Shown here in pieces: positions 1-62,667 of a stretch of 64,000 nucleotides of DNA. The notes below the pieces were generated by a model, which saw only the letters and a program-made list of their open reading frames with translations, was not told the origin of the DNA and did no database searches. A program made the translations under genes and the position numbers. Within the stretch, counting starts at the first letter, position 1. Each line of letters starts with the position of its first letter. The stretch comes from Geosiphon pyriformis uo1. Its lineage: Eukaryota; Fungi; Glomeromycota. The stretch spans positions 745,820 to 809,819 of the forward strand of contig JAAOMT010000664.1 in NCBI GenBank assembly GCA_016748015.1, written 5' to 3'.

Positions 1-322
1 TCCAAGTGGTGGTTTGTTATTTTAAAAAAGTAGAGCCGTCGTCCTAAAGAACGAAATATGTATACAAAGCACAAATCCAAAATAAATGTCCCGAGGTTAC
101 ATAAAATATTTTTTATGCAGCGACATTTTAGATGGCGTCCATCCAGTGGTTATTCAAGCTGTAACGTGGTTCCAAAGTTTGATATGTCTCTTCGTCCCTT
201 GCTAATGAGCGAAGAAGAATACATTCCCTATATTTTTTAACCCACCTCGTCTTTCATTTTTCTTGAAATGAGTCTTCGCCTTTGATAAGTTTCAAAAATT
301 CCAGATCAAGAAACAAAGCGTA

Positions 323-12646: not shown

Positions 12647-12779
12647 GACTTTTAGCAAGCAGGTTCCGTGGAACTTGGATATTTCGGATTTGATTTTTAA
12701 AGAAGCCCAGTTCCACATGACCACCATCGTACAAGTTAGCAATTAGTATCAAGGAGTTTTATTAAAATTAATTTTAATA

Positions 12780-26730: not shown

Positions 26731-28864
26731 TGTTATAGATAACTATTTCTGGTGTTGGATTAAATAACAAACCCATAACTTGGTGCTCAAATCTAGTTGT
26801 AGTTAATAGTGATCTGAAGGTTTGTGTCTAAAAAGTCTGTATCTGAAGGGTTTGGTTGAGTTCTTTGTATAATGAACAGAAATTCAATGTAATAGTTTTA
26901 TCTGTAGCTTCCTAAAACTGCGGTTTTGTTAATTTTTTTCTTAGCTTGATGGCTGGTATTTCTCTTAGTAAGCTATCTTCAATCGAGTGTTTTACCCTTA
27001 TTTCTGGATCTTTTACCAGTCACGTTTATCCTGACGTCAGTACCCCATGCGTTAATTCTCAATAGAGTTAGTAAATAACAATAAAATTAAAGCAAGAAAT
27101 AAAGAAAAGAAAAGAAAATAAAGAAAGAAAAGAAATAAGCCAAGGCGATTTGCAAGTTAGTATTCTATTAATAGCCATGATCAAGAGCTATTGTTCTAGT
27201 GTGGTTAAGTATCAATTATTATTAACATAAAGTGTTAATAGTGGCAGTGGGTTTGAGATAACAAACAGTTATTTATTTGTGGTTTGAAAAGTTGTCTAGA
27301 TGAAATCTAAACTGAGAGGTCTCTCTTTTTAGCTTCTAATCTTACTGCTATATATACATAATTGAGATTCTTCAATTCCTCAATTTTTCACAACAGGAAT
27401 TCTGGGATTTCTGGAATTCTGCAATTTTTTTGAGAGGAATTCTGCAATTCTTTGTGAGAATTCTGTAATTTCTGGAATCTTGCAATTCCTAAAAGGAATC
27501 CTGAAATTCCACATTTTACTACATCTATTTCTGATTGGTTAATAACTATGCTAATATATATTCCCTATATTTCTATAAGTAATATTATTCCCTTCTTTTA
27601 ATATTGAGCTCTATTGAAATCTAACTCTGTTAATTCCCCTTCTTGAAGTATTTCTTGAATTTCATTTTCGAGAATTACTTGCATTATTTGAGTCTGTAAT
27701 TTTTCAAATTGAGCATTGGTGATCTTTCCTAATTGATTACTGGTAACTGTATCCATTGCTTTGTTGAGTAAAATTTCTGGTTGATCCTGAAATGTTGTGT
27801 GTATTCGGTATATGGCTTGGATCTGTATAGATAAGTTGTTTTTTTCCACAAAATGTTCTAATTGTTGTAGTATTCTTGTGTTGAATAATTGCTTTGTTTT
27901 ATCTGTATATAGATTCTGGATATTTACATGTTGTCCCAAGTAAAAATAACAATAGTTTCTTGGAAATTGTTGTATCCACTAATTCCAAGTTTCTTTAGTC
28001 AACTCTTGGTATAGTGACTCTTTTGTCAACTCTTTTATTGCTAATTTTACTTTCACAATGATTTTGTCAATGGTATTTTCTGTTTTCTTCTGTGTTCTAT
28101 GTGGTGATGTTTTTCTAGTGTTTTGATATTGGATGGTTTGTTGATTAATTGTAATTTCCATCTCTTGGTGTTGAATCAATTGAAAAAGTTGTTGTGCTAG
28201 TGAGTAGATGTTGTCTGTAATTTTCATTTTTCTGATATTTCTTATCACATCTACCATGTCTTTATATATTCTTTTGATGAATTAATTTAATGTGTTGTTG
28301 TCAATGATGATGATTGGTTCCAGATCTCATGGAATCTCCTCTGGTTGGACTAGTATCTTCTGTACTTCTAATTGTGGAATATTACTGATAGATGATAGTA
28401 TGATGTTGTGATATGGTTTCAGTCGATCTCTATGTGCTGCTTTGGTTAAGATTTTGTTATCCAGTCTTAATTTGTAAGTTCTATTCCTTAGAATTTCTTC
28501 TATGTGAAATGGTCTATCCCATTTGAAGTTGAATTTTCCACTCCATTGTTTTTCTGCTTTGGTACAATGTAAGAATATTTTGTCTCCAATCTTGAATTCA
28601 ACTGGTTTGTCTGGTAGTTGATTATTATGTTTTTCTTTCTGTTTTTCTTGTGACTTTTGTATGTTATCAGCTGCTTTTCTTCATTTGTTTTCCAATGTTT
28701 CCATTAAGTTATATGTTCTTCTTAACAATGTTTCTTGGAAATTCTCTTCTGTTATTGGTTTAGTTGAATATGTGTTAACCTTTATCTCAACTGGTAATAT
28801 TGCTGTTCTACCATATATCAATTCAAATGGTGTTGCTTGTGTGGTGTTTTGCTTTATTGTCCAA
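26731..28864 (-). mobile_element. Gypsy element G, 3' end: integrase C-terminus, ORF3 (28227-27598 with one stop), PPT, 3' LTR 27584-26731
   Basis: Integrase TPFELIYGRTA..KWDRPFHIEEILRNRTYKL..LEPIIIID. PPT AAAAGAAGGGAATAA at 27599-27585. LTR T(A)TTAC...TAACA is related to 45105-45951 and 62668-63528. Confidence 0.85.
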
Positions 28865-29235
28865 TGTTACAGTTTAAGAATTTAGCAAAAGAATTATAAA
28901 AATAATACAAACTATTCAATCATAATATAGTGCAGTAATAATCTTAGAAAGGTAATGATTAACATAGTAGCAAACACCATCTCATAATAGTGGCAAGCAC
29001 CAGTTCACAATAGCAGCCAACACCAACTGGTGATAGCAGCAAACACCAGGTTGAAATATCAAAAAAAAAGTATTACAATGTGTTTTCTCATAGAACTACA
29101 AACATGTATATATACAATAGCTTTAATATTGGGAAAAGACAATCAAGTAATAAAAATCATAACTTATCAAGCAATAGATCTAATTTTATCCAACAAACTC
29201 CACTTTAAATCATACTTTCAAATTAAATATCCCAA
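28865..29235 (+). mobile_element. Probable LTR (another family) inserted in element G, truncated by the gap
   Basis: Starts TGTTAC exactly where integrase homology stops. Four TAG(T/C)(A/G)GC..(A/G)CACCA units precede a TATATATA box, the same layout as the other LTRs. Confidence 0.55.
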
Positions 29236-29828
29236 NNNNNNNNNNNNNNNNNNNNNNNNNNNNNNNNNNNNNNNNNNNNNNNNNNNNNNNNNNNNNNNNN
29301 NNNNNNNNNNNNNNNNNNNNNNNNNNNNNNNNNNNNNNNNNNNNNNNNNNNNNNNNNNNNNNNNNNNNNNNNNNNNNNNNNNNNNNNNNNNNNNNNNNNN
29401 NNNNNNNNNNNNNNNNNNNNNNNNNNNNNNNNNNNNNNNNNNNNNNNNNNNNNNNNNNNNNNNNNNNNNNNNNNNNNNNNNNNNNNNNNNNNNNNNNNNN
29501 NNNNNNNNNNNNNNNNNNNNNNNNNNNNNNNNNNNNNNNNNNNNNNNNNNNNNNNNNNNNNNNNNNNNNNNNNNNNNNNNNNNNNNNNNNNNNNNNNNNN
29601 NNNNNNNNNNNNNNNNNNNNNNNNNNNNNNNNNNNNNNNNNNNNNNNNNNNNNNNNNNNNNNNNNNNNNNNNNNNNNNNNNNNNNNNNNNNNNNNNNNNN
29701 NNNNNNNNNNNNNNNNNNNNNNNNNNNNNNNNNNNNNNNNNNNNNNNNNNNNNNNNNNNNNNNNNNNNNNNNNNNNNNNNNNNNNNNNNNNNNNNNNNNN
29801 NNNNNNNNNNNNNNNNNNNNNNNNNNNN
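29236..29828. other. Assembly gap (N run)
   Basis: N characters. Confidence 1.
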
Positions 29829-30283
29829 TTCTTGTTTTTGGATTTTCTATTGTTCTTTTTATGTATGTTATTTTGGAGCTATTAACTGTAATTTCTAGAT
29901 CGGATTTTAATTGTTGTAAGCTTTTAACTAATTGTTGAGTTATATTGTTGATGTTTTCTGGAATAAGTATCATTGTTTTAATTTTGACTGTTACTTTGGA
30001 ATCTTTTGCATGCGTTTTTATGGTTGTTAAATCATTTTTGCTGTGATCTAAGATTAATTATCTTTTCGAATAATGTTCAATTAAAACTATTGGTTCTAAA
30101 TCTCGTGGAATTTGTTCTGGTAGAATTAAAAGTAATTGTGTTCCAATTCTGGGTGTTTTTGTTATTATTACTGGTTTACTGTAATAGAATTTCAGCCGGT
30201 TACCATGTGCTGCTTTTCTTAATATTTTATCATCTAGTCTTAGCTTGTATGCTCCATTTCCAAGTATTTCGTGAATATAAAAT
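29829..30283 (-). mobile_element. Gypsy fragment: integrase C-terminus and ORF3 N-terminus
   Basis: FYIHEILGNGAYKLRLDDKILRKAAHGNRLKFYY..IPRDLEPIVLIEH*, then ATG 29973 MILIPENINNITQQLVKSLQ. Confidence 0.8.
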
Positions 30284-30303: not shown

Positions 30304-30595
30304 AAAGAAGCTATTCAGAAACAACTCCACAATGAATTCAAGACAACAGCTGGATCAACAAACAGTCACTACAGGCTTAGAGCTGCTCTTAGACTTTATG
30401 ACCTATTTCACACCTGTGAAAACATACTACAAAACCCAATTTTTCAACCTTTGAAGATTCAATACATTGGAAAGCTCACAGAACTGAAATTTCAACAATT
30501 TTCAGACCAAATTTCTTCAATAATTTTGGATTATTATCTGGAAATAACAGACAGTACTTGAACTTCGACGGAGCTCAGTCTTGAGGAGGAGGTTA

Positions 30596-31555
30596 TGTTA
30601 CCAGACGAAATTAGAGATATCATTTAGCATGAAACTATCCTATAATTCCTATCATTAATTAGCATATATTATCGTTTCAAATTATCACTTATGACATTAG
30701 CAAAAATGTCCGAAATTATCATTTAATTAATAACCCAAATTGTACACAACACAAATATAACCTAATTGCGATGATCAATCATGCAATACCCCGAACTATG
30801 TAACATTCAGAAGTTCGCCAAAATTTGTAGAAATTCGCCGAAATAATTGATAGTTCACCAAAATATCTAATAGTTCGCCGAAATGTATCTTTAGTTCAGC
30901 GAAATTGTAGAAAATAGCAAAGTTCAAGTTCATAGAATAGTGTTACAACAAGTTGTATAAAAGAAGAGCTTCTCTCTTCGAGAAAATGTATCTTATCTTA
31001 GATTTATCTCTTAAAACTGTTCCTATACACACAAAAAGAAATAAATATCAAATAATTCGAAAAACCAAATTCTTTAATTATTGTACTTGGAAAATCCCCA
31101 AAATCCAACTAACATTTTGAAATTGATTAGCTACCAATTTCAGTAAACTGTTAGTGACTCCAGGCCTGAATAGAAAACGTTTCCCTCAACAAAATTTTAT
31201 TTCTTTTACATTTCTTTTATTTTCTTTTATTTTTCTTATCACAATCATTAGGGTAGCCTACAGACGAGATTCCTGTAGAAGAGTTGACTTTCACAGCAAA
31301 GTAACTACACATTTTTAGTGAGCTTCCAGATGAGCAATACCTGGGAAAGAGTTGACGTTTACTACAACATAACTACATCAAGCAACTGGCACAGAATTGG
31401 CCATTCCACTCATAAGCCCAGCAAGTTCAAATTATAGGAGATAATTTGAAGATAAATTCAGTTACTGGAGGTTCAACCACATCCAGAAAACGTGAATTCA
31501 CAGCAAATAAGTATCGACAACATTACAGAAAAGAGACCAAAAACCTCCAGTAACA
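30596..31555 (+). repeat. LTR of element A (960 bp) with U3 AGTTCGCCGAAAT-type repeats and TATAAAA at about 30956
   Basis: Preceded by PPT GAGGAGGAGGTTA, followed by PBS; TG...CA termini. Confidence 0.9.
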
Positions 31556-31573: not shown

Positions 31574-31600
31574 AAATAACACAGCAAAAACAAATTCAAA

Positions 31601-34600
31601 GTGGCGACCACACCAGACGCAACTACTTTAGAATATTACCAATCAATTTACACCCACTGCAAGCAAAGATTCAACATTCCAGACGGAATTGAAGTTGTCA
31701 AGAAATCAGTATACCAATACATTGAAAATCGCATCAACAATTATCTTTTTGGAAATTACAATATCTCCAAAGTTAAAAGCAATCTTTACAATAATTTAGC
31801 ACACTATTCACAATTGGGAACTGAAGACCTTAATAGTGAAACACTTGCCACTTACTTTCACGAACTTAATTATAACATTATCAAATACTGTGAAGAAACA
31901 TATCCAGTGCAATCTCAATACACCATTGATTTTGAATTGGAAACAGAAACAAGCAACAAAGACAAAAACAAATTAAAGCAATATTCAAGAACCACCCCAA
32001 ATACTCCAACACTACTGAAAACAACTGCTAAACATTTACAAACACCTGAACAAAGAACCAGTTCAAAACTTCCACTTACTATCACATCTTTTCCAGCTTC
32101 GTTTGCACAAGCACAAACACCTAATTCACCCTTGAATTGATTTGCAAGACCAGAAGATTTTACATCACTCAGAAGTCCCACCAGACAACAAAAACCCCTT
32201 CAAACTAGTTCCAATCTCCTTGATTTTCTAGCTGAAAATCAAAGTGAACACTCTAAGACAGCAGCAAACGAAGAAAACAACTCTGAAATAACCAAAGAAG
32301 AATCAATAAACAGTGAAAACGAAGAAAACAAAATGACAACATACATCACAAAAATCTCTGAATTCAATGGAGAAGATATTGAGACCAGTCCCCAAGAATG
32401 GCTTGACCAAGTTACTAAAGCTGGAGATGCAAATGGATGGAACGCTGCCAGAATGTTAAGAACAATTCCCTATTTTCTCAAAGAAACAGCAGGAGAATGG
32501 GTTAAAAACCTTGCCGCCCCATTCAATGATTAGAATGCTTTCAAAGCAGCCTTCCTTGAACAGTTCACTGACAATAATACCTCTATCACTCTTCGCAATC
32601 GTTTTCGAAATATCAAACAAGAACCCTCTGAATCCGTTATAACTTATATTGGGAAATTCAACAAACTTCTCAAACGAATTCGCCAACTCGAGACAAATGA
32701 TTATTATTCTGATGCTCAAATCTTGGATCAATTTATTGCTGGTCTAAAAGATAAACTAATTAAAAAGGTTCGCCCACATGTGCCAGAAGATTTAAACTCT
32801 GCCATCCAGCATGCGAAAAGATACGAAATGGCCATAGAAGAAGCCAATCATACAAAACTTGTAAATTTGGTAATTAGAGAAACCAGCTCAGCAGCTGAGG
32901 AAAAAATTGACCAACTCACAAAGAAGGTCAAAAACTATTTTACCAACCAACAACAACAACAACCCCAAAGATATCAACCACCCCAAAGATGAAATCAAAA
33001 TAACTTTGCACCACTTTCCAATAACCAGCCCTAGAATTGCCATTACTGTGGAATCTCTGGCCACTGAAAAAGAGATTGCAGAAAGCTGCAATGAGACCAA
33101 CAAAATAGGGGTAATCAACATTACTCTTCACCACAGCAATCTTATTATCAATTACCACCACCAGCTTACTATCCACCAAGACCCCAATACCAAAATAACT
33201 ATTATCAGCCCATCCCACAACCAATCCAACAGCAATACCAACAACCACCCACACAACATTATCAAGTATCTGCTCGAAGACTGATTACACAAAATCAATT
33301 CACACCACAAAACCGATACCAAGTAAACAACAGTAGAATCAGTTTGAACAACCAATTGGTTCCCTGAAATACCACTCAACCAAGATCCAACCATTACCAC
33401 ACTCAACCCAGTTATTTAACAATGCCGGAAGAACAGGATTTTCACCATACTGCACCCTCGGAAGGTAGAGCTGCAGCACAACAACAACAAAACCCTTCTT
33501 ATAACCACACCACTATTCCACCAGCCCAAATTGCTGAAAATACCAATCTCTCTGATATCTTTCCTTTTGAATTTGAAGTAAATGAATCACCATTCTTGCT
33601 TAGCAATGCAGTGGCTAATGAGCAAAAAGCCATCACTGCAATGTACGCAGAAGCTGAAGTAGAAGGAAAGCCAATTCACTTGATCCTAGACAGTGGATCT
33701 GCCGGAAGCATTATTACTTACCAGTTAATACAACAGTTGAAAAGAAATGTCGACCGACCAGCTCAAACAGTAATTGTCACTGCTGATGGCATGAAAAAGA
33801 CACCAGTAGGAGAAATTGACAATTTTCCATTCACTCTTGATGGAATTACCATTCCAGTCAAAGTTCTTGTAATGGATGCACCCCAGTACCAAGCTCTCGT
33901 CAGAAATGATTGGCTTCAAAAAGCCAATGCTAATCTGAATTGGGAAACACAAGAGTTAACAATCTTCTACCAAGGACAACACGCCTGAGTACCTGCCATT
34001 TGTGGTACATTCAACAAATGCTCTGAAAAAGCCCCAGCTTTTGAATTTGAACCAGAAGAAAAAAAACCAATAATCGAAACATTCATGGCTCTTGGATCAA
34101 TGTCCAACTGAGCCGATGAAACAGAACAAGAACATTTTACCCCACACACTAAACCCGAAACCTCTGGATGGAATATACCTTACTCAAAACCTGAACCAAG
34201 AAAACAATGCCCCTATATTTCCCTTAAATGTAAGGACTGTCACAAGAAACTATCATCAATGGAAGCCTGTATTTCACCTGAAGAAGAATATGAGAATCAT
34301 ACTTGTTATTACTGCAAGGCTTGCCACAGAGAGTGATGGGGCCATCTAATAAAAAGGAGCAGAAAATGGGACAACACCTCTTGTTTGACTTGTGAAGATA
34401 TGCTACCAGAAGAATGCAATTAGATTGATGTAGTAATGAGAGGAGGTGTCTGCGATCAGACCTGCCAATATGCCTTATCAATTTCAGAAAAAGTAAAAAG
34501 AGGAACACCCTTTAATGCAGCATACAACAGTGCTTTCAACAAACTTTATCACTACCCTCATGATGCCGAGATGATTTTCGACTTAGCAATGGCATTAATT

Positions 34601-37217
34601 AATGGAGCTACCAAGGAAGACGTTCGTCAAATGAAGGAAGCAGAATACATTGAATACACTATGGAATTAGCTGAATTTGATTATGAAGATGAAGTAGAAG
34701 TCTACCACCAAATTGCAAGTCACACCTACCCGACCCAAGAAGCTCAAATTCAATGATTAGAGCAAATGAACATTAGGTTATGTGAAGAATGCATTATGCC
34801 TTGCGATGAACAATAGTGTTCTGAATGCTATGCTCTTAGTATCCCCTTGCCCAGTGAAAATAATGAAAATGAAATTGAATTCGGAGAACCTGAAGAAACG
34901 GAAGAAATTGAAACAACACCCATCTACCTTATTGAAAATCAGCCTGCCTTACAACTTAAATACTTCAACAACAACGGACAAGAAATAAAATCCGAAAAAG
35001 CACATGAAATTGATGCTGGATATGATCTAAGATATCCAGGCAAGGATACTCTTGTTCTCAAACCCAAATCTCTCACAAAAATCAACCTCAAGATTGCACT
35101 CAAAATTCTACCAGGAGCAATGGTTCAAATTGCCTCCCGGTCCTCTCTGGCAAGCAAAGGAATCAATGTCAGAAGAGAAATAATTGATGCTGGATATACT
35201 GGAGACATAACAGTGATGTTTCAAAATGAGACTGACAAACCATTCAAGATTGAACATGCTGAAAAAATTGCCCAAGCTATTTACCTACCCTTAATCAATA
35301 TTGCGGGTTTGCAACTAGTCAATCAAAGAAAACAATTAGGAAAAAGCGATAGAGGAACCCAAGGTTTTGGTTCAACTGGACGATTCACAGTTCCAGTTAA
35401 TATAGCCCTTAACACACAGAACGAATCCCACCAGATTCTCAGACTTCCACAACCGATTACCATCTCACCCTTTGGAGAACATCCAGAAATTTACACTTGT
35501 ACAAAGCCAACAACCACACAACAAATTTTTGAGTCCAATGAACAAGTCTGCTTGGAACATAATATTTTGATCCCAAACATTTATATCCCAGAAGAAACAA
35601 AGAAAGTCCGAGTTACTTTTTACAACCCCAATAATTACCCCATAATTTTATTAAATAATTTAGAAATTGAAGTTATTCACAGTAATATATTTCAACAAGA
35701 ATTACCCCAAACAGTCCCCGATTTCTCTGAAATTATTGGACATTCACTACTGAAAATCAACCCAAACTCTAGCTCTGAAAACTACCATGTTGTCATAGAA
35801 AAACTATCTCGAATCAACATGGGACAACTTGAACTACAACAACAAACCCAGCTTAAAGAACTAATTGCAGAATTTGCTAATATCTTCGCTGAAAACAACA
35901 ATGACTTAGGAAGAACTGACTTGGTTCAACACCAAATCTATACAGGAGATGCCAAACCCAGGTGACAACAAGCCTACCAAGTTGCTCCAGAAAGTCACCA
36001 ATTTATCCAAGAAGAAGTACAACGGATGCTTAACAATGGGCTTATTCAACCATCAATGAGCCCATGGGCCTCACCTGTGGTTCTAGTTAAAAAAAAAAAT
36101 GGAAAGATACAATTTTGTGTTGATTACCGACAACTCAACAGTGTCACCATTGGGGATGCCTATCCTCTTCCACGAATTGATGACATGTTGGATGCCCTTG
36201 GAAAGTCCAAATACTTTTCAACATTAGATTTAGAGAGTGGATACTGACAAGTTGCTATAGATCCCAAAAACCGCCCCAAAACAGCATTTACCACTCAAGA
36301 AGGAAATTATGAGTTCAATGTAATGTCTTTTGGATTATGCAATGTACCAGCAACATTCTAAAGACTCATGGATGTTGTTTACAAAGGCCTCCTTTGGAAA
36401 TCAGTAGTAGTTTATCTTAATGACACTGATGTTTATTCACCATCTTTTGAACTACATTTAATTCACCTGCAAGAAGTTTTTCAATGATTACGGAAAGCAG
36501 AAACTAAACATTGAAAAATGCTACTTCGGAAAGACAAGTTTAGCTTTTCTTGGTCACATTGTTAGCAAAGATGGAATTAAACCAGACCCCGGAAAAATCA
36601 GTACTGTCAAAAACTTCAAAACTCCACGAAATACCACAGAATTAAGAGGATTTATTGGATTAGCATCTTATTACCGAAAATTCATCAAAGAATTCTCAGA
36701 AATTGCAAAACCCCTCAACCAGCTTACTACAAAAAATGTCAAATACAAATGGACAAAAGAACACCAAAATGCCTTCGAGATACTCAAAGAAAAACTCACA
36801 ACAGCCCCAATCCTTGCCTACCCAGATTTCAGCAACCGATTCCGGTTAGCAACTGATGCTTCTTATACTGCCTTTGGTGCCATCCTATCACAGTTAGATG
36901 ACAATGGAAATGAGCAAGTAATTGCTTATGCTAGTAGAACATTAAAGCCAGCCGAAAAAAACTACCCCGCAACAGAATTAGAAACTGCAGCAGTAATCTG
37001 GGCCCTACATCACTTCAACCTTTACCTCAAATCCAAAAAATTCGATATTATCACTGATAATATTGGACTTAAATGGCTTCAAAACAAAAACACCCAGCTG
37101 AACGCAAAACAAACCCGATGGACAAGATTTTTAGTTAATTACCAATACATTATACACCACAAATCAGGAAAACTCCACACCAATGTTGATTGTCTCTCAA
37201 GGATGAGGCAAGATTAG
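31601..37217 (+). pseudogene. Element A Gag-Pol (N-extension, capsid, CCHC, protease, Cys-rich insert, dUTPase, RT, RNase H) with premature stops and one frameshift near 36500
   Basis: ORF fragments starting at 31601, 32333, 32723, 33422, 34436, 34847 and 36026 share one frame. Stops fall mostly at CGA>TGA and TGG>TGA/TAG sites. Confidence 0.9.
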
Positions 37218-37265
37218 AAACAAAACTAACACCCAATTGAATTAACAGCATCAAAACAACAAACA

Positions 37266-38651
37266 ATGAACCCCGAAAACTACAACAATCTCAAACAATA
37301 TTTGGAGACATTAACAATCCCAACAGATTGGTCCCCAGACGAAAAACATCAGTTACAACAACAAGCCAAACAATATTTTCTACATAACAACATTATCTAT
37401 CATCAAAATTTCAAAAACCCAACCAAACCACTCAGATTAATACAAGAACCAAAAAAAGAAACCATTTTATACAACATGCACTCGGATCCTTCATCAGCAC
37501 ACTTCGGAAAAGATAGCACCACCCAAAGAACACTAGAATACTACTTTTGGCCTTGAATGAGAAAAGACATTCATGAATATGTCGAATCTTGTGATAGTTG
37601 TCAAAGAAAAGGAGAAACTCACCCTACAGAACCTTTAAATCCAATCAAAGTTGGACAGTCTTTTGACAGAGTTGGTATTGATTTAGTCAGACCACTATCT
37701 ATCACCACTCAAGGAAACCGTTATATTGCAATAGCTGTAGACTATCTTACTAAATGGCCTGAAGCCAGAGCCATTCAATGAGCAGATGCAAAATCAGTAG
37801 CAAATTTCATCTATGAAGACATCATTTGTAGACATAGATGTCCAATTGAACTTTTATCTGATCAGAGAACACACTTTGTGAACAACCTAATACAAGAAAT
37901 TTGTGAACAATTTAATGTCAAAAGACCTCTGTTTTCACCCTACCATCCACAAACAAACGGACTTGTGAAACGTTTTAACAGAACATTGTGTGAGTCATTA
38001 GCCAAAGTCTCAACCGATTTTGAGCAAGAATGAGATCTCTTTATTCCATCAGTGTTACTAGCATATAGGACATTAAAACAAGATATCATGAAACACACAC
38101 CATTTGATTTAACTTATGGAAGAACGGCAACGTTACCAATCAGTTTTACAGTGGAAACATACCCAGCACAACCGATTAATGAAAACAATTTCCAAGAAAC
38201 GCTTCAGCGAAGAGCCTACACTCTGTTTAGCATATTGGAAGGAAAATGACAAATAGCAGCCACCCATATTGAACACTCCCAAGCTCAACAAAAAGAACGG
38301 CATGATAACAAATTGCTTTCAGTTACCAATAAATTCAAAATTGGAAACAAAGTTCTCTTACACAGAACTAAAGCTGAAAAACAATGGAGTGGAAAATTTG
38401 AAAATAAATGGAATGGACCATTCTTTATCCATGAAGTCCTAGACAATGGATCATACAAGCTAAGACTTGATGACAAAATCCTAGCAAAAGTTGCACATGG
38501 AGATCATTTGAAACACTATCATTCCAGAAACAATTCTGAACCATTAATTCCACAAATTGGTACACATTCCCCTTTGGTCAGTCCCGAAAATATTCCCCGA
38601 AACTTAGAACCAATAGTTGTCATTGAACAACCTTCCAACCTGAACACTTAA
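37266..38651 (+). pseudogene. Element A integrase ORF (own ATG), disrupted
   Basis: MNPENYNNLKQYL..HSDPSSAH..CDSC..GIDLV..LSDQ..GLV(K)RFNRTL..WNGPF..LEPIVVIE. The fragments share one frame. Confidence 0.88.
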
Positions 38652-38771: not shown

Positions 38772-39353
38772 ATGACTATTCCTCAAAACATTCAACAATT
38801 ATCCCAAAAACTAATGTTAGCTTTAAAAACAATACCCGAATTATCCATTACTGTTACTGGAAACCACATAAATTATACCCAAACAGCAGTAGTTACAAAT
38901 TCAGCCCCAAATTCACGAAAATATCACCCATATAAAAAGAACACAAGAAGTTATACTGAAATTCACCTGCCAGAACTTTTAAAGCTTGCTTTAAGAGAAA
39001 ACCTAATGCTCACTCCGATTAGTATTCCACCAAATGCTACAATTCAACAAAAACTTCAACTGTGTCTCAATGAAGAAAACACTGAATATCTTCCAATCTA
39101 TAGATATTTTCACATTGGAAAAACACTCTACGGATGGAAACTGGAACTTACAACAGCAAATCTCACAAAAGAAGCTATTCAGAAACAACTCCACAATGAA
39201 TTCAAGACAACAGCTGGATCAACAAACAGTCACTACAGGCTTAGAGCTGCTCTTAGACTTTATGACCTATTTCACACCTGTGAAAACATACTACAAAACC
39301 CAATTTTTCAACCTTTGAAGATTCAATACATTGGAAAGCTCACAGAACTGAAA
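38772..39353 (+). CDS. Element A ORF3 (env-position protein of unknown function); true C-terminus FQQFSDQISSIILDYYLEITDST* is seen at 30490-30561
   Basis: Open frame from ATG 38772. The terminal LSLIHI* is translated adapter. Homologues at 28227-27598(-), 29973(-) and about 61268-61900. Confidence 0.75.
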
Positions 39354-39372
39354 CTGTCTCTTATACACATCT
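39354..39372 (+). other. Nextera/Tn5 mosaic-end adapter contamination
   Basis: Exact CTGTCTCTTATACACATCT joining ORF3 to an internal LTR position. Confidence 0.97.
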
Positions 39373-42600: not shown

Positions 42601-44737
42601 AAAAAAAAAGACCTAATATTTGAGCCCTACCCAGAAACTTGCCAACAGTTTCTTATAAGACTTACTAACCTTTTTATTCCAGCTAATAAAGCTTAATAGA
42701 TAAAAATTCCTATTGCAAACACCACAAAAGAACTCATTTACATTCTGGAAGATACCATCATTGGATATCTTGGAATGGAACTAGAAAATGCATCAACACC
42801 ACAAGAAATTCTAAATTTCTTAAAAATCACTTTAATAAATTGGCAACAACTATTGGAATGTTATCAATTTATGACAGAAGAATTGACCAAATTAAATATT
42901 GGAACAATGGATCCTGACTAACAGCGACAATTAAAAGCATTAATTTTAAAATACTCTGATATATTTTCACAAAATAGTGAATTTGGAAGAACCAACTTGG
43001 TTCAACACCAAATTCCTACTGGAGACACCAGACCTAAAAAACAATGCACTTATCATGTCCCACCAATGGAGCATAATTTTATCAGAAAAGAAGTCCAAAG
43101 CATGTTGGAAAAAGGAATAATACAACCATTAATAAGCCCATGGTTCTCACCAGTTGTTTTAGTAAGGAAAAAGAATGGAAAAATTAGATTTTGTGTCAAT
43201 TATTGCAAACTAAACAGCAAACCAACCAAAGACTTATACCCAATACTGTTAATTAACAAAATTTTTGACGTTTTTGGAGGAGCAAAATGGTTTTTTACAC
43301 TGGACTTGACCAGTGGGTACTGGCAAGTGGAAATGGACCCAAAGGACAGACATAAAACAGCATTCACAACACAAAATGGCAATTATGAGTTCAATGTAAT
43401 GCTATTTGGATTAACAAATGCTCCTGTGACATTCCAAAGACTAATGGACATAATTTATTCTAGAATCCTGTGGCAATCCATTGTTGTCTACTTGGATGAT
43501 ACAAATGTTTTCTCATCAAAATTCACAGATTATCTCCAACATTTACAACAAGTTTTTGAGAGATTAAGACATGCTGGACTTAAACTAAATCTAGAAAAAT
43601 GTTTTTTTGGGAAAAATGAGCTAGTATTTTTAAGACATATAGTTGGAAAAGATGGAATAAAACCAGATTCATCAAAAATAAACAAAGTGAAAAATTTTCC
43701 AGTACCTCAAAATGTTTTAGAAGTTAGAAGCTTTTTAGGACTTGCATTTTACTACCACTGCTTTGTAGAAAACTTTTCAAACATTGCCAAACTCCTTAAT
43801 TACTTACTATCTAAAAATGTAAAGTTTGGATGAACTGAAGCACAACAAAAAGCTTTCAAGTACTTTAGACAAAAGCTCATTGAATTACCAATAATGATCT
43901 ATCTGAATTTTAACAAAAAATTCATTTTGGCCACAAATGCCTCTAAAACTGGACTTGGAGCCATTCTGTCACAAAAAGATGATAATGGAAAAGAATGTAA
44001 TTACTTATGCCAGCAGAAGTCTCAGTATGGCAAAGCAAGACTACGCAGCACATAAACTTGAATGCTTAGCAGTAGTCTGGAGTTGTGTTCACTTTGATAC
44101 ATATTTATGGTACCAACCCTTTAAGATTACTACAGATCATAGAGATCTGGTCTGGTTAAATAACAAGAAAGCATTAAAAGGAAAATACGCCAGATGGTTA
44201 CAAATGTTAGCACCATACAATTATATTATTAAATACAAAGAAAGTACCAAAAATGCTAATGCTGACTGTTTGTTAAGAATAAGACACACATAAAAATCAC
44301 CAATTCACCCGCCACAACAACAATGAACAACCACCTTTACAAAAACCTCAGCCAATACTTGGAAACACTACAAATAGATGAAGAAATGCCAGTAAAAGAG
44401 CTAATTAAGCTCCAAAAATTAGCAAAACACTATTTCATCCAAAATCACATACTTTATTACTGAAATCAACAAAATCCAGATAATCCATTAAGAGTTATAA
44501 CTATGGATAAAAAAGAAACTATCTTATTTAACATGCACTCAGATATTCATTCAGGCCACTTTGGAAAAACAGCAACCATCCAATATGCAACTAGCCATTA
44601 CTATTGGCCAAAAATAAGTTCAGACATAATCCAATACATAAGAAATTGTGACTCATGCCAATGAAGAGGAGAAGCAAAAACAATGGAATTATTAAGACCA
44701 ATAAAAGTTGAACAGCCATTTGACAGAATTGGAATAG
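39631..44737 (+). mobile_element. Gypsy element B internal region (host of element A): gag, PR, Cys-rich insert, dUTPase, RT, RNase H, start of separate IN ORF; truncated
   Basis: ANNWNNQKAIQTLSFFLKGTADSWYQ; CHFCNCVGHLISQC; ILDSRSAG; dUTPase remnant 42060-42480; RT YLDD at 43489-43500; NADCLLRIRHT* ending 44293; IN ATG 44323. Confidence 0.9.
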
Positions 44738-45951
44738 GTAATGGGAAATTGTTATTGTGTGTACCTTTCAATAGTTTGATTGATTTCCCTAATGATTGGT
44801 GCAAAAACTGTAGTTTCTTGGTAAGCTAATATGTTGAAATAATTCTGTATAGAAATTTTCCCTTGTGGATTTAATGTTAACTGTTCTTCTTATGCAGTCT
44901 GTGATTTTATCATTGATGTAAAAGTTGAAGGCTAATTCTGCTGGGAAATGGTTATTGTTTAATCCTAATTGTTGGCTATACTGTTGAAACAAGAATTTGG
45001 TGAATTCTAAGTAGTTTGCTCTTATGATTTCTGATTCTGCCACTTTTGAATAATTGTTGTTGGTGCTGTTCTCTGTAGGATTATATCTTACAGAGAGCAC
45101 TAAATATTACAGATAATTATTTGAAATCTCAATTCAAATAACAAACCTATAACTTGATGCTCAGAAATTATTCATGATAATAATGATGTTGATGATAATC
45201 TGAAGGTTTTGGTAGAGTTTTTTGTATAATAAACAGAGATTCAATAGTTGTTTCAGTAGTCTCCTGGAATCGTAATTCCATCAAATTTCTTTCTTAGCAT
45301 GGTGGTCAGTAATCTTTTTGGTAAGCTATCTTCAAATCTATGAGTGTTCTACTCTTGTTTTACAGGTCTTTTACCAGTCTCTATAATGTTTGTATCTCAG
45401 CACTTAACCTTCAATCAATTAGAAAAACAAAAAATAACAAGAATAAAATAAAATAAAATAAAATAAGCCAAAGTGGTTGCAAGTTAGTATCTCATCAATA
45501 GCCATAATCAAAAGCTATTGTTCCAGTATGGTTAAGTATCAATTATTATCAACATAAAGTGTTGATAGTAGAGAGTAGATTGAGATAGTAAATAATTATT
45601 TATTGATATTTGTGATGTGGAAAATTGTTTAGATCAAATCTAAACTAAGAGGTTTTTAACTAAGGAATTTTGCTTTTTCTACTTCTAGCACTACTGCTAT
45701 ATATACATAATTGAGATTCCTCAATTCCTTAATTCTTTATACCAGAAATCCTGGAATTCTTGGAATCCTATAATTCCTTTTGAGAGGAATCCTGGAATTT
45801 TGGAATCCTGCAATTCCTTGTATGAAAATCCTGAAATTTCTGGAATCTTGCAATTCCTCTTGAGAGGAATCCTGAAATTTTATTTTTACTATGGCTACTT
45901 CTGATTGGCTAATTTATATGCTAATATATTCTCTATATTTTATAAGTAACA
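44738..45951 (-). mobile_element. Gypsy element F, 5' end: LTR 45951-45105, PBS, Gag N-extension, truncated
   Basis: TGTTAC start at 45951; GAATTC/GGATTC-rich U3; PBS T(A)GTGCTCTCTGTAAG; KVAESEIIRANYLEF..AFNFYINDKITDC matches 63590-63830. Confidence 0.85.
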
Positions 45952-48511: not shown

Positions 48512-51500
48512 TAGCCCACATAAATGGCATGGCTTTAGCTGGTGGTGCATTTTCTAAAATCTTTTTTCAATGACCAATCTAGTTTGGAAGATTGCTACAT
48601 GCAATGTTAAAGGTATGATGAATTTAACTAAGCAGGAGAACATCATTCATTGGCATCTGAAATCTGTTAATCTGGTTTCTATTTTTACTGAGACCAAACT
48701 AAAACTTAATACTGGGCCTTGGATTAAGAACAAGTTTGAAAGAGTTCAGATTTTTACTTCTGGCTCAAAAAAAAGCTTTTTTGGTGCAGGTGTGGCTATT
48801 TTAATGTGCTGTTTTCTGGCTCAGCATGTTTCAAGGATTGAAAAGGTTTCTAGTTATGCTATTTCTGTTCATTTATTGTTCAAGAAAGTTATTGATTATG
48901 TTTTTTTAAGTAAGACTCTATTTTCTGCTATCACTGGGCATAAGATTGGCTTTGTGTTTGAATTTTTTGATACCAATCATAAAATAGTTGGGGTCTTAGT
49001 TAGATTGAAAGATTTGGTGGATGCTTGGCTGACTGGTGTTCAAAAACAGACTAATAGAAACCATTGGAAATTCAAATTAAAGGATGTAGATGAGACAAAG
49101 TAGGGGCAATTTAAGGAACTTTCTTCTGCTCTTCTGTCTACATCTTTGGATTCTTTTATGGTCACAAGGAATAATGGAAATCTAAATGGAATGTGAGAAG
49201 TGTTGGAATATGCCATGTGTAATTTAGCTAATAAGACATTTTCTAAGTATTAGTTCAGTGAATTTGATTGTTCAAAAAACAAGCAATCTTCAAAGTTTTT
49301 CAGATTGGAATTGTTGGTTGCTAAGTTGATAAAATGTTTGGGTTTGGGTCTAATGGATGAGTTTGATTGCCTTGTTTAGATTTGGGTGTCTTTTAATAAT
49401 GCTGAGACTTCTAAAATCATTGTTTTATTTTGGAATAGACTTAAATCTGCTAATTTATGTGGTTACTTGTTAAAGGTCAAAAAAAGTTATCGGAAATCCA
49501 AGTTTTATGAAGCTGAGCTCACCAAAAGTAAGTTTATTAAAGATGCTATTAATAAGTAGATGAAGAGCTTCATTTCAGACAAAGGCAGTATAATCAGAAG
49601 TGTTTTGGAATGCCTATTTCACAAAGTTGTTCTGAACCATTTAGTAGTTAATAATGAGATAATTTTGGAGCTTGATGAGATTTAGTCTAAGGTAGATGAG
49701 ATTATAGTGAGTTGAACTTGTAAGTAGCAAGTTCCTTCTTTTGTGCCAGATTTGTGGGCTCGACAGTATGTCTTCTTGGCTTATATGAAAGATGATGCTT
49801 TTTCAAGTGTGATAAATGAGATTGGTTTGGATAAGTTCTCATTGGTAGTTGGTAAATTACTGGATGGCAAAGCAGCTGGCCTTTCTGATATAACAAATAA
49901 ATTGTGGAAATACTGTAATAATAATATGCTGGTTTGTTTTTGGAGTCTGCTCAATTCTTGTTTATTGATTGGTGATGTTCCTAGTCTTTGAAAAAAAACT
50001 TGGGTTTCTATAATCTCCAAGCTCTATAATTGGAATGGAATCCTGACTAATACCAGGTCTATTGCTCTTTTAGAAACTATGAGAAAGATTCTTTTCAAGA
50101 TTCTATCTGATTGGATCTCATTAATTTGCAGCATGTCTGATATTCTCCATGGTAATAATTTCTTTATTTTGAAAAATACCTCAATTCAATCTTCTGTGTT
50201 TGCTGTTAGTTTAGTAGTGGAAGATGCCTTGGAAAAGGGTTGAGAAATCTGGCTGGTTTTGTAGAACATACACAAGGCATATAATTCAGTCAAGTAGCAT
50301 TATCTGAGGTCTAGTTTAAAACACATCAAGATGTGTTGTAAGTTCATAAGATTTTTTGAGAACATTCATAAGAACAGAGTTAATAAAATAATAATAGATT
50401 TTGGTCTTTCGGATGGCTATATAGTTGGTAACAAGTTGGATTAGGGTGAAGTATTTTCACCTCTTCTCTGGAGAATTTTTTATGATCCTTTGTTGTGTAA
50501 AATTAAAAGGCAAGAACAGCTGTGCAGTTATAAGATCAACTCCAAATTTGTGGTAAAAACTGGCAGAATTAAAAATTATAATAACAGGTCTTTTTTTTTG
50601 CAGCTGGTGCCTTTGTTGATGATATGATATAGGTAAGCAATAGTTAAGTTTCAACACAGTATATTTTGAATATTGCTAGTGAGTTTTATGAGCTTAATAA
50701 TATTTTGATTAACAATAACAAGACAGTTGTAATTCCTATTAACTAGAGAGTTCTAGAAGCTACTTTGTGTATTAGTGATTGACCTATCTATATGGCAAAA
50801 AAGGGTGAGACTTATAGATATCTGAGTATCTTTTTGTCCATGAAGGGCTTATTCAATTCAAGTTTTGCTAAGGCTTATGCAGATGTCAAATTTTTTTCAA
50901 ATATAGTTTTCAGGAAAGCCATATTAGACAAGCAGTTCTTTTATTTGGTTGTGGCAGTCCTTTAGCCTATTGTCAGTTATTATATGCAGTTCAGTTTCAT
51001 TTTCAGAAGTGTGTGTCGGAAATAGGATGTTTTGTTAAGAAAGAGGCTTAAGTTTAAAACATTATTGCCTAGAGATTTTTCCAATAAAGCCTTGTGTTAT
51101 TCTTCTTTTTATAATTTAAAATTTTTCAAGCAAGTACAAGCTGAGACTAAGATCATGTTGGTTATTGGGTTCTCTAATGCTTTTGGAATTCTTGGCTGTC
51201 TGTTTGTATATCATGCTTTGGACTTACAGATATTAGGATGGGTGTTATCCAATTTTTTGCATTGTCCAGTCAAATTGAAAGTCAATTCATTGAACAATTT
51301 TTTGGCAGGAATTGTGAGAATTTTTTTGGATGTGAATGTGTCTTTAGCCAATGACATACCTTGTGTATTTCATGGTTTTTGTTGCTATTCAATGTCTAAG
51401 ATCTTGGAAACTGCTTTTTATTTTAATGTGATACCTTCTTTAAAGTGTTTTGGCATTGTCTTTGGTAATTGTTTGGTTACAAAACGTGGTATTGTCATGA

Positions 51501-52928
51501 ATTGAAAACTTTTCATTGTTGGAAAGGATTAAGTCCTAAAGATCCAATACCAGTTTGGTTTAGTAAGGCCTTGGTATATATGAATAATTATCTGATAGAA
51601 CCTGAAGACTGTTTAATTATTTTAGCTGGTTCTAGTTTTTTTTGTTCAAATGAGTTTGTAGAGGTTTGTGAAAGCTTGTATGGGATTTGGACTGGGAAAT
51701 TAAATGTCTTTACTGATGGCTCTTTGTGTAATCTGAGTATAAAGGAGGTGGTTTGTGGTGCAGTGGCTTATTTTTTTGAGATTGATATGGGTATAGATGT
51801 TAGCATACAGAGTGTGTTATCTTCTACATTGGCAGAATTGCAGGCAATTGCCTTAGCTTTGGAGTGTGTTTTCTCATATTGTTTAGTTATCTTACACACA
51901 GATAGCCAGGCAGCTTTGGCTGTGTGTCTATCAGAGTGTAAGCTGAGTTGGCCTAATGTTCGGAATCAGTGTTGAGTGGAATAGTGTTATATAGTTAATT
52001 TGATCAAATCAAAAGACATTTCAGTGAGATGAGTGAAAGTAAAGAGACATTCAGATGTTATTGGTAATAATCATGCAGATGCTCTGGCTCATGCTGCGTT
52101 GCATTTATGTTTGACTCTTCCAGTTGAAATAGATAAAAGGTTTCTTATGGCTGATGGCCTTGCTGTTTCATATAATGCTCACCATTTTATTCACAATATT
52201 TACCATACTATGAGTCGGGCTTTATGGAAGACAGGCTTTAGTGTGAGTGTTGTTAACAGTTCAATAATTCAGTCTATTGATTAAGAGTGCACTGTCTCTG
52301 TCTGGCATCCAGATTCTCATATATTGACAGGTTTTACTAGTAAAAAGTTGGCTGCTCTGCATACTTATTTGATAAAAGCTGTTTACAAGAAATTGCCAGT
52401 GGTTGTTTACAAGAGATTGTACAATCATGAATATCTTAATGTTTTGTGTTTGTTGTGTGATGAAGTAGAGTTTTCTGACCATGTTTTACTTGCTCTGTGA
52501 ATGTTTTGGTGCATTCTGAGATTATTTCCAGTTATATTGGTTTGTGATCATCTTTGGCAGATAATGACATTTCAGCTTTATCTCTAATATTGCAGACTCT
52601 TTTCCAGGTCTTTGACACTGGTGTGTATGCAGTATTATGCAAAGATTTTGTTTTCAGAGATTGAGTCAAGGAGGCCATTTCCATTTTTAATAACAAAAAG
52701 AAAGCTGTATTAATAGAGATGAATTTTGTTTGCCATCTGGCTAAGGACCATTAAAGTAGATCATGATTGCTGAGAGCTAAATTTAGGGTGGAAATAGAGG
52801 AGCATGGCTTGGTTTGTAATATGAGTGGGGTTTTTGCTCCTTTGCATAGGTTGCTTAGCTAACTGTTTGAGGGTGTAGTTCACTTGTTTGGTGTTGTTGA
52901 GTCTTTTGCTATTAGTTTTAATCTGTGG
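48512..52928 (+). mobile_element. LINE: ORF1 end plus ORF2 (APE, RT, RNase H, CCHC), disrupted; interrupted at 52929 by an LTR element
   Basis: WKIATCNVKG..IFTETKL (APE); GKAAGLSDI, RSIALLET.RKI, GEVFSPLLWRIFYDPLL, AFVDD (RT); VFTDGS..AELQAIALAL..HTDSQ..GNNHADALA (RNase H); CLLCDEVEFSDHVFTC. Confidence 0.9.
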
Positions 52929-58900: not shown

Positions 58901-61900
58901 TTAAAGTGATGTCATTTGGTTTGATAAATGCTTCCGCCATATTTCAATAACTTATGGAAATTGTTTATACTGAACTACTGTGAAAATCAGTAGTTGTTTA
59001 CTTAGATAACACTAATGTGTTCTTTAAGATATTTGATGACCATCTATATCATCTTCAACAAGTGTTTAAAAAGTTGAAAAAAACAGGATTGAAATTAAAT
59101 GCAACCAAGTGCTTTTTCAACAAGACAGAGTTGAAATTCTTGGGATATGTCATAAGCAAAGATGACATTAAAACAGATTTGGATAAAATTGCAATAGTAA
59201 AAAACTTTTTAGTACCAACCAATTTGATAGAACTGAGAGCATTTTTGGGATTCACAGGCTATTATTGCTGCTTTATCAAGAACTTTTCTAAACTGGCTTA
59301 GCCACTTTACCAGCTACAAACCAAGAATGTAAAATACAAATAAACAGAAGCTCAACAAAAAGCTTTCAACATATTAAGAAGAAAGTTTATTCAAGCTCTA
59401 ATGTTGATGTATTCAGATCACAGCAAACTATTCATCATTATTACCGATCCATTAAGTTAAGCATTGGGAGCAGTATTATCACAAAAAATACCAGATAAAA
59501 GAGAACATCCAATAGTTTATGCCAGCAGAAGCTTAAATCCAGCTAAAAAGAACTATGGAACTCCAGCACTAGAACACTTAGCTATTTATTGGGCTGTTAT
59601 CAAATGAAAAAAATACTTGAATCAAAAGTTTAAGGTGTACACTGATCACAAAAGATTGATTTTAATTCAGAAGCAAGAATTCAAAGATGATTACCATACC
59701 AGATGGAAAATAGAACTTTCATCATTTAATTATACAGTACATTACAAAAAAAGAAAAGAAAATAGAAATGTTAACAGTTTGTCAAGAATAAGACATATTT
59801 AAAAACATTTCAACCCAAAAATATAACAAAAAATGAATATACAAAAATACCAACAACTCTAACATTAAATAAATATCCAATTGTTTAAGGAGAAATTATC
59901 TCAAAAGGAACAAAACAACATAAAACAACAATCAAAATATTTTATCAACTATCAAAATATACTTTACTAGAAAAACAAAAAAAATCCAGATCAACTAACT
60001 AAAGTAATTACAGAACCAGAAAAAGAGACAATATTGTTTAACAGCACTCAAATCCAACAGCAGAACATTTTCACAAAGAAGCAATCATAGAAAAAACCAG
60101 AAAAAAATACTATTAGCCATTAATGTATCCAGATATTATCCAATATGTTCAAAATTATGACACTTATTAGAGAAAAAGAAGAACAAAACTCAGTGAACCA
60201 TTGAAACCAATCAAAGTGGAACAACTATTTGATTGCATTGGAATTAACTTAGTCAGACCATTAACAATTACTAGCAGAAGCAACAGATATATTGTAGTAG
60301 CCATGAATTATTTCACTAAATGGCTAGAAGCAAAAGCCATTCAAAGAGCAGATGCAGAATCCATTGCCAAATTCATTTATTAAGATCTGATTTGTTGACA
60401 TGGATGTCCAAAAGAACTATTATCAGATCAAAAAACTTACTTTGTAAATAGAACATTAGCAGAACTAAGTTAAAGATTTGGAATCAAAAGACCATTATTA
60501 TTACCATACCATTCACAAACAAATGGGTTAGTTGAAAGATTCAACAGAACATTGTGTGAAGCAATAGCCAAAATCAGCCAAGAAAACCAGGATAAATAAA
60601 ATTTATTCATACCATCAGTATTATTTGTTTATTAGACAATGAAACAAAACACTATACAAGCAACACCATTTAAATTAGTATATGGTAGAACAGCAACATT
60701 ACCAATTGAGATAGAAGTCAACACTTATTTAACAGAACCAATAACCAAAAACAATTTTCAGAAAATGTTGCTAAGAAAAACATATGACTTAATGGAAACT
60801 CTAAAAAACAAATGGTGAAGAGCAACTAATAACATCCAAAAGTCACAAAAAAAACAAAAAAAAAGACATAATAACCAACTACCAGATAAATTAGTTGAAT
60901 TCAAGATTGAAAACAAAGTACTTCTATATTATACCAAAGCAGAAAAACAATAGAGTGGAAAATTTGACCCCAAATGGAATGAACCATTTCACATAAAAAA
61001 AATTCTGGAAAATGGAGCTTATAAATTAAAATAGGACAACAAAATCTTAGCCAAAGCAGCACATAGTAATTGACTGAAATCATATCACCAGATAGTATTA
61101 TCATCCACCAATAACATTCCACAACTGGGAGTACAGAAAATACTAGTTCAACCAGATGAGATTCCATGAGATCTGAAACCAATTATAGTTATTAAATCAA
61201 ACATGTTAAATTGAATAACCAAAAGAATATAAAGACATGATATACACAACAAAAGCAACAAAGAAAAATAGAAATACCAGACCATATTTACACTTTAGCT
61301 CAACAATTGTTTCTGGCATTAAGTTAATAGCAAGCAAACATAGAAATTATCATCAACAACCAAACAATCTATTATTAAAACACCAAACAAAAAAAAAAAG
61401 TACACCATACTAGCAACCACAGAAACAATCAATAAACTGGTCAAATAAAATAGTAGAGAAAGTAAAAAACACCTTTGGAAAAATAACTATCATTGTTTCA
61501 ACAGAAAAACTAACAAAAAAAAATTGGAACCAATGAATAGACAAACTTCCAATACCATACTGCTATTATCAATTGGAACAAAAAGTAAATATTCAGAAGT
61601 TATATCTTGACAAATCAAAGAGAATCTTCAATCAAGAAATAATCTGGAACATTGAAGACATTATTGGAAAGAAAACAAACTTAACACTACACATCAGGAC
61701 CATTTATTGACTACACACTATATTTCAAAACTATTCAGAAGTATTATTACACTTTGACATAGAAACAATAATTATCAACCAATAGGAAAGAATAAACAAT
61801 TCACAATTTGAAGAAATAATGAGTAGGGTAAAACAAACACTACTTGAAAAAGAAGTATTTGACATAATTCAAAATGAGAATTTCAATGGAGCTTAATATT

Positions 61901-62667
61901 AAAAGAAGGAGATAATGTTACTCATAAAAAAGAAAACAAATATAGAAAATAGTAGACCAATAGGAGAGTAGTAGTTAGCACATAAGCACATTGCTTAGCA
62001 ATATAGAGCAATGTCAGAAATTACAGCATATTGGTTAGCAATATGGAACAATGTTAGAAAATTAGGACACATTGCTCAAAAAATCATAATACATTGCTCA
62101 GGAATGTGAGCAATCTTATAAAACATAAATTATGTATATATAGCAATAGCATTAAAAGAAAAAAAAACAGACCTCTTAATTTAGATTTAATCTAAACAAT
62201 CTTTCACATCAAAAATATCAATAAATAATTATTCAATATTTCCAATTTACTCTTTACTATCAACACTTCATGTTAATAATAATTGATACTTAACCACACT
62301 AGAACAATAGTTTTTAATCACGACTATTGACAAGATACTAACTTGCAATTACCTTGGCTTAATTTTATTATTTTTTCTTTATTTCTTTTATTTTCTTTTA
62401 TTTATTTTATTGTGTTTACTAATTGATTAATCGCTAAATTATTGACATTAAGGATAGCCTGGTAAAAGACCCCAAAAGAAGGGTATAAAAATTGAGAATT
62501 TAAGGATAGCTTACTAACAGGGCATCTCTGCCAAGATTACCAGTCACCACACTGAGAAAAAAATTCGATGGAATTGCAATTCCAAGAGACTACTAAGAAG
62601 ACAACTATTGAATTTCTGTCCATTATACAAAGAACTCTAATTCAAAACTTTTAGATACAATCAATGT
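52929..62667 (+). mobile_element. Gypsy element C, full length and heavily mutated: 5' LTR 52929-53696, PBS, gag-pol with dUTPase, separate IN (ATG 59833), ORF3 about 61268-61900, PPT, 3' LTR from 61916 (interrupted at 62667)
   Basis: Paired LTRs starting TGTTA(T/C)TCATAAAAAAGAAAAC; PBS at 53699; WLNDIEKTIMANGWND; dUTPase 57550-57970; RT YLDN; NVNSLSRIRHI* ending 59802; IN GLVERFNRTL; PPT AAAAGAAGGAGATAA. Confidence 0.92.

Follow-up and report, generated by a model that had tools for sequence, protein, structure and literature searches.

The window analysed here comprises 64,000 nucleotides of the Geosiphon pyriformis genome. Its left part encodes fungal host genes, including those for a Zn2Cys6 domain protein, a glycosyltransferase 15, a mitochondrial carrier and a DEAH helicase (Pfam). 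The helicase, which has a double-stranded RNA-binding motif (Pfam), is encoded in a single open frame of 1692 codons (272-5350). Two further long open frames in this region, at 8065-9138 (+) and 11162-12742 (-), have no Pfam match at E 0.05. An inverted pair of about 1 kb (69% identity; 13836-14806 and 22497-23492) flanks an AT-rich region with the glycosyltransferase 15 exons, and is possibly a pair of old transposon ends.

From about 26 kb onward the window is filled with decayed Ty3/Gypsy elements (Pfam). Four of these, here called A to D, carry an additional ORF (ORF3), and all four ORF3 copies directly follow an integrase C-terminus and precede the 3' LTR (the spacers were examined for all four). 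The order gag-protease-RT-RNase H-integrase, together with the presence of an LTR and a polypurine tract, identifies the carrier as a Ty3/Gypsy LTR retrotransposon. The copy of element A is dead, because its pol is broken. Coordinates are given in Table 1.

Table 1. Positions in the window of the four ORF3 copies and of associated features of element A
Feature	Position	Strand	Basis or remark
Element A gag, protease, dUTPase, RT-RNase H and integrase, all decayed	31580..38651	+	Pfam, Ty3/Gypsy order
ORF3 of element A, codons 1-194 of the 239-aa protein, open, cut by assembly artefact	38772..39353	+	MTIPQN start
Tn5 mosaic end (Nextera adapter) remaining in the assembly, source of the false end LSLIHI*	39354..39372	+	Exact 19-nt match
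3' part of A-type ORF3, codons 133-239	30304..30627	+	Premature TGA 30559-30561; true stop TAG 30625-30627 within LTR
Polypurine tract, read through by the ORF3 frame as EEEV	30583..30595	+	Sequence; same layout in L001
A-type LTR, begins TGTTAC, 3' end approximate	30596..31190	+	Sequence
U3 array of five TTCRCCRAAA-like 10-mers spaced 20-21 bp apart and followed by a TATA-like box; candidate binding sites	30814..30904	+	Sequence
ORF3 of element B, 209 codons, in-frame ATG upstream at 28257, one TAG at 27979-27981	27598..28227	-	MKITDN start at 28227
ORF3 of element C, 5' 48 codons, cut by N gap 29236-29828	29830..29973	-	MILIPEN start at 29973; full relative is P0256
ORF3 of element D, frameshifted, several stops	61268..61905	+	IEIPDH, starts at ATA

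SH3_Tf2-1 matches were identified at the integrase C-terminus of A and B (Pfam), and no chromodomain match was found at the integrase end of element A (Pfam). Instead of a chromodomain, the integrases of A, B, C and D have in common a hydrophobic tail motif, P.D/NLEPIV.I (38560-38651, 28300-28360, 30060-30150 and 61130-61215). In all four elements examined, three in the window (approximately 37215-37270, 44290-44330 and 59780-59820) and one on a metagenome contig, L001 (772-801), a stop closes the RT-RNase H frame and integrase is encoded separately from its own ATG; the separate integrases start with MNPENY, MNNHLY, MNIQKY and MEKSLY. Such a conserved division of pol implies that subgenomic RNAs or reinitiation are used. 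A dUTPase is encoded between protease and RT in element A (34817-35965, Pfam E 1.6e-20).

The ORF3 of element A is interrupted by an assembly artefact. The 19 nucleotides that follow the open part are the sole Tn5/Nextera adapter match within the window. Contigs of run X1 attach to adapter sequence at many unrelated sites, and loose contig ends at 39353 (runs X1 and X2) carry on with the sequence found at 30490. Further, 39168-39353 and 30304-30489 are 100% identical; the assembly has therefore probably set the element's 3' end before its own internal region. An earlier note on this DNA had proposed rebuilding the protein from 38772-39353 plus 30490-30561. The ORF does continue at 30490, but 30561 belongs to a premature TGA that stands where intact A-type models have W, and the frame runs on to the TAG listed in Table 1. 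It thus crosses the polypurine tract and ends inside the LTR, in agreement with the 239-aa models. The adapter joins two element copies inside the scaffold, and further chimeric joins may exist in the assembly.

At 239 aa, the A-type protein exceeds the length of about 220 aa given in the earlier note; B-type proteins have 209-219 aa and metagenome types 230-234 aa. The N-termini that the note quoted for A to D and its core motifs are all present in the sequence, and the two B ORFs at 28257-27979 and 27939-27598 are, as it had read them, one frame split by a TAG.

ORF3 occurs in hundreds of G. pyriformis gene models. Searches with the A copy gave 192 matches among 299 candidates and searches with the B copy 121 among 489; in each case the best 120 were all G. 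pyriformis hypothetical proteins. Integrase C-termini are fused upstream of ORF3 in 15 of 330 retrieved gene models. A direct tblastn comparison of A and B ORF3 was not significant (E 1.7-2.4), but in a profile-profile comparison the two families align across 182 columns, with a probability of 81 and E 1.2e-5. A profile built on the A and B families alone identified 119 proteins at E <=0.001 among 1.84 billion; it finds the C type (E 4.5e-32), the D types (E 1.7e-23 and 2.3e-13) and the metagenome proteins P0264 (E 8.4e-28) and P0268 (E 1.4e-25). One protein from this search, P0315, is a repeat protein and was discarded as a false match. A wider profile, which includes the families of the window copies, recovers all four of these copies and nothing else in the window. 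The ORF3 families are 21-37% identical to one another, and integrase C-termini 42-69%.

Outside G. pyriformis gene models, metagenome contig L001 encodes an RT-RNase H, a separate integrase ORF and an open 230-aa ORF3 that is about 30% identical to that of A and overlaps the purine tract in the same way; an LTR is also present, and occurs again on contig L002. A scan of DNA with a closer ORF3 alignment matched two of 506 candidates. Metagenome ORF3 proteins further include P0264, P0328, P0329 and P0333-P0335. A further homolog search matched six of 2611 candidates, none of them named, and did not yield a Rhizophagus-type sequence. Relatives were found in none of 203 candidate viral contigs, and none was found in annotated phages. 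ORF3 is thus an additional ORF that many copies and families have conserved in the interval from pol to the 3' LTR.

ORFs of this kind form a known class, to which ORF3 belongs as the class is described in the accessible text of PMC7264820: additional ORFs (aORFs) of Ty3/Gypsy elements lie in the interval between pol and the 3' LTR, are conserved in most copies of a family and lack database matches. Examples given there are gene23 of plant Grande and the aORF of fungal Boty, and a nuclear accessory role has been proposed. In that text, sense aORFs resemble Env and have TM helices, and the aORFs that are soluble and nuclear run antisense, whereas ORF3 is both sense and soluble; it also differs in its overlap with the polypurine tract, and none of the families named in the text matches it. 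Searches of the accessible literature aimed at this lineage retrieved no description of ORF3.

Codon-level comparisons point to constraint on the protein. Between B and D (187 codons), pN/pS is 0.48 (bootstrap 0.38-0.63) and dN/dS 0.32, values that blend selected and neutral change because both copies are dead. Differences affect the second codon position at a rate of 0.225 and the other positions at 0.364 and 0.396. Integrase controls gave pN/pS of 0.36-0.46, and LTR controls, read in arbitrary frames, gave values of 0.76, 1.01 and 0.76 for the three frames; of the shifted-frame ORF3 controls (0.60 and 1.48), the lower counts against selection. One diverged contig has 33 differences, of which 26 were listed; 13 of these affect codon position 3, 9 position 1 and 4 position 2, and 10 of 22 changed ORF3 codons are silent. 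Subfamilies A1 and A2 (23 and 24 proteins) differ from each other at 17 of 95 core sites (0.18) and at 13 of 24 linker sites (0.54), with copy decay alike within the two (0.11 and 0.14). As judged from these sequence data, which comprise one window pair (B/D), one contig and protein patterns, ORF3 is under purifying selection within the integrase range. The claim that the protein is conserved across lineages and functional is therefore borne out, both by cross-family profiles (E 1.2e-5; 1e-13 to 1e-32) and by a dN/dS that is not near 1. We conclude that ORF3 is a real, selected accessory gene family of fungal Ty3/Gypsy elements.

AlphaFold2 models of ORF3 have an N-terminal helix and hairpin (5-37, pLDDT 63-71), a linker predicted to be disordered (39-60, pLDDT <50) and a helical core. 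Modelled alone, the core is a confidently predicted helical bundle (pLDDT 92.5, pTM 0.85). Hydropathy at the N-terminal helix and hairpin is about 1.0-1.3. The usual Kyte-Doolittle cut-off for a TM segment is 1.6, and the best 19-residue window reaches 0.81-1.50 in all 30 full-length A-type proteins and 0.27-0.63 in all five B-type proteins. A TM helix or anchor, with the best window at <=1.50, is therefore absent from all 35, as the earlier note had stated. ORF3 is extremely unlikely to be a degenerate Env or to act as a movement protein in transfer between cells or hosts, readings for which its env position and sense orientation speak: by Kyte-Doolittle there is no hydrophobic segment, Pfam gives no Env family match, and structure searches returned no fusion-protein fold beyond generic coiled coils. 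The description of ORF3 as not Env-like thus stands, and profile and Foldseek searches (Pfam, PDB, BFVD) match it to no known Env or named family.

Significant matches were likewise absent from PHROGs, NCBIfam and viral structures. Weak PHROGs and NCBIfam rows (phrog_23683, and FtsQ in 12 of 40 related members) are scattered and were taken as chance. Of two PDB sequence searches one gave a best E of 0.15 and the other no match. Foldseek with the full model returned no match at E 0.001 in PDB or BFVD; with the core it gave no significant match in BFVD, where a DUF3102 protein ranked 15th (E 3.1). In VIA structure comparison the best Z was 5.2 for full and core models, with none at 8, and 3.3 in a second run. 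In a language-model search of the Atlas with the core, the top two matches are unnamed Mucoromycota clusters, with scores of 0.94 (171 shared features) and 0.93 that serve as leads only, as unrelated rows score 0.92 and no alignment lies behind them. The earlier note had likened the core to an uncharacterised helical domain frequent in Glomeromycotina proteomes; the two clusters support this likeness in part, qualified by the same unrelated rows and missing alignment.

This resemblance would also fit a captured host gene, or a passenger without a role for the element. We regard such an origin as very improbable, since ORF3 is under purifying selection of the same range as integrase, has been retained by many families despite their 21-37% identity, overlaps the polypurine tract, and has no copy in the window outside elements that the profile detects; the passenger form is largely refuted.

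DNA-binding domains of three ParB-family proteins align over the whole ORF3 core: Spo0J (Z 4.0, rmsd 4.3, 88 aligned), KorB (Z 3.6, rmsd 4.6, 91 aligned) and ParB (Z 3.5, rmsd 5.0, 87 aligned). These are three of 50 rows, at Z values common for the tool, and the top row is Orc6 (Z 5.2). DUF1016_N (PF17761) gave weak matches (Atlas 0.85; Pfam E 0.11-0.12, far under cut-off). ParB/KorB-type domains, DUF1016_N and DUF3102 (PF11300) have a helix order like that of the core and also a Y-x-x-I-G helix, although they are bacterial and phage proteins whose sequence, profile and structure scores against ORF3 are not significant. Kinship with DUF1016_N or DUF3102 was not supported by profile comparison: the core aligns with the YhcG-N (39 sequences) and DUF3102 (81 sequences) profiles over 13 and 18 columns, one short helix, with scores of 19.0 and 16.9 that do not exceed the maxima of block-shuffled controls (19.0 and 21.0). 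The YhcG-N and DUF3102 profiles, by comparison, align with each other over 107 columns. The YhcG N-terminus itself is, in the available part of PMC1189080, characterised just as helical and unassigned. With the profile test at shuffle level, DNA binding by ORF3 stays a guess, and a ParB/DUF1016-like DNA-binding fold for the modelled core is a weak lead.

A candidate nuclear signal was identified in the linker (pLDDT <50). The motif R/K/H-x2-5-PY, which is the PY-NLS consensus according to the text seen of PMC2408616, is present in seven of 13 family representatives. It is missing in the other six, namely both B types, two D models and the two most distant proteins. Among 62 decayed A-type copies it is retained in 27; in an alignment of 47 A-type copies the Y never varies and 28 copies retain the P, which is consistent with the decay of other C-rich codons. 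ORF3 has an acidic tail, with a net charge of -2 to -7 in complete proteins, but in A, F and L001 the tail overlaps the purine tract, and it may thus be a by-product.

A predicted nuclear signal would suit one alternative reading, in which ORF3 is a Rev- or CERV-like RNA factor that binds the transcript and aids nuclear exit of unspliced RNA, or balances full-length and subgenomic RNAs. The separate integrase ORF after the RT-RNase H stop in all four elements, which needs several RNAs or reinitiation, would accord with this, and CERV of Caenorhabditis elegans Cer1 is a precedent in the accessible account (PMC10309623). Like ORF3, CERV is an accessory protein of a Gypsy-type element, is novel and is nuclear, the location of ORF3 being a prediction. 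It is however a 517-aa spliced product that shares exons with gag and has a G-like domain; its position and predicted fold differ from those of ORF3, and we saw no shared family. Also, a motif scan found no long Arg-rich tract in ORF3, and Pfam gave no RNA-binding family match; we consider an RNA factor unlikely.

Alternatively, ORF3 may be an integration cofactor that is carried in the particle, binds integrase or cDNA, and either brings it into nuclei or, as a substitute for a chromodomain, tethers it to chromatin. The integrase end without a chromodomain match, the hydrophobic tail motif that the A, B, C and D integrases have in common, and the constant position of integrase directly before ORF3 would be expected on such a function. 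L001, however, has ORF3 yet lacks the last part of the integrase tail motif, and this role too seems improbable.

The LTRs contain repeat arrays that are candidate targets for a DNA-binding protein. Exact matches to TTCRCCRAAA number four, all in the A LTR at 20-bp spacing, with none elsewhere in the window; because the pattern was picked from these very matches, its shuffle count is post hoc. B- and D-type LTRs hold different arrays, with periods of 17, 21-22 and 40 bp. Arrays are enriched over shuffles in four of seven LTRs at both word lengths tested, and plain word counts are not significant for the A LTR or the LTR at 52929 and are marginal for L002. Such U3 arrays are common in LTRs without a gene of this kind. 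TTCnnGAA units, which correspond to the core of heat-shock elements, were identified in arrays of B/D2-type LTRs (27409-27477, 45747-45881 and 62816-62871), and host factors may therefore be the binders.

Overall, a nuclear accessory protein is the best-supported reading of ORF3. Within it, because of the conserved PY-type signal and the family-specific LTR arrays with a period of about 20 bp, our best guess is an LTR activator or anti-silencer that binds the repeat arrays of its own LTR and so keeps the element transcribed; this proposal, drawn from sequence features, is a tentative one. ORF3 would be imported into the nucleus via the PY signal in the linker, its core would contact DNA through a helix pair at about 133-167, and it would recognise the U3 array of its own family. 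The mildly acidic tail, or a host cofactor, may then activate the LTR or relieve silencing.

The same signs of a nuclear DNA binder (fold rows, PY motif and arrays) would be compatible with the opposite sign of effect, that is, with a brake in the form of a repressor or copy-number control acting on the LTR or the particle and limiting damage in a multinucleate host. ParB/KorB-type domains include repressors. We judge a brake to be quite unlikely, given the acidic tails and the proportion of LTR elements in the G. pyriformis genome (41.2% in the part seen of PMC11952901), which does not point to a strong one.

Two known systems serve as models for an LTR-binding activator or anti-silencer. Foamy virus Tas, as covered in the available text of PMC3798896, has 209-308 aa, is poorly conserved, adjoins the 3' LTR, combines a DNA-binding with an acidic activation domain and has lineage-specific LTR targets, features that illustrate how ORF3 may work. 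Tas differs in following env and in having an internal promoter with its own response element (PMC3798896), whereas in a window scan the A-array motif was not found near ORF3. No homology to Tas was detected with Pfam at E up to 10 (eight proteins) or up to 1 (40 proteins). VANC of VANDAL, in the portion of PMC5735166 consulted, is an element-encoded anti-silencing protein that diverges faster than the core enzyme and recognises family-specific tandem target motifs. ORF3 is like VANC in being element-encoded, in having diverged more than the integrase of its elements and in being associated with family-specific arrays, but VANC is the protein of a plant DNA transposon and has DUF1985 and DUF287 (PMC5735166); neither domain was among the Pfam matches listed for ORF3 (best 25 of 30 families in the larger search). 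ORF3 may thus act in the manner of Tas or VANC, yet it belongs to neither family.

Accessory proteins with a regulatory role are known, to our knowledge, from few LTR retrotransposons. On a more specific reading, which we hold to be rather doubtful, a Gypsy lineage of early-diverging fungi might encode its own sequence-specific LTR activator or anti-silencer, with a ParB-like helical domain that co-evolves with family-specific U3 arrays. If this reading is true, ORF3 would be a counterpart of Tas and VANC in a fungal retrotransposon and would help to explain LTR expansion in the G. pyriformis genome, as well as an abundant unnamed Mucoromycota protein family. A compact, well-folded and selected protein with candidate arrays in several diverged families offers a direct test of protein-target co-evolution. 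The results also bear on annotation: hundreds of hypothetical genes in G. pyriformis are retrotransposon genes and not host genes, and the unnamed Mucoromycota family is perhaps likewise retrotransposon-borne.

Other features of the decayed region were identified. No clear primer-binding-site-like TGGTGCTC was seen after the A-type LTR. The sequence TGGTGCTC, which resembles a primer-binding site and is presumably of the tRNA-Met type, occurs immediately after an LTR end at 53697-53715 and at about 63520. A 23-bp tandem repeat of 3.7 copies (28964-29048) adjoins the N gap. A match to cellular-type RNase H (PF00075, E 6e-6) at 51469-51975 is likely from another kind of retroelement.
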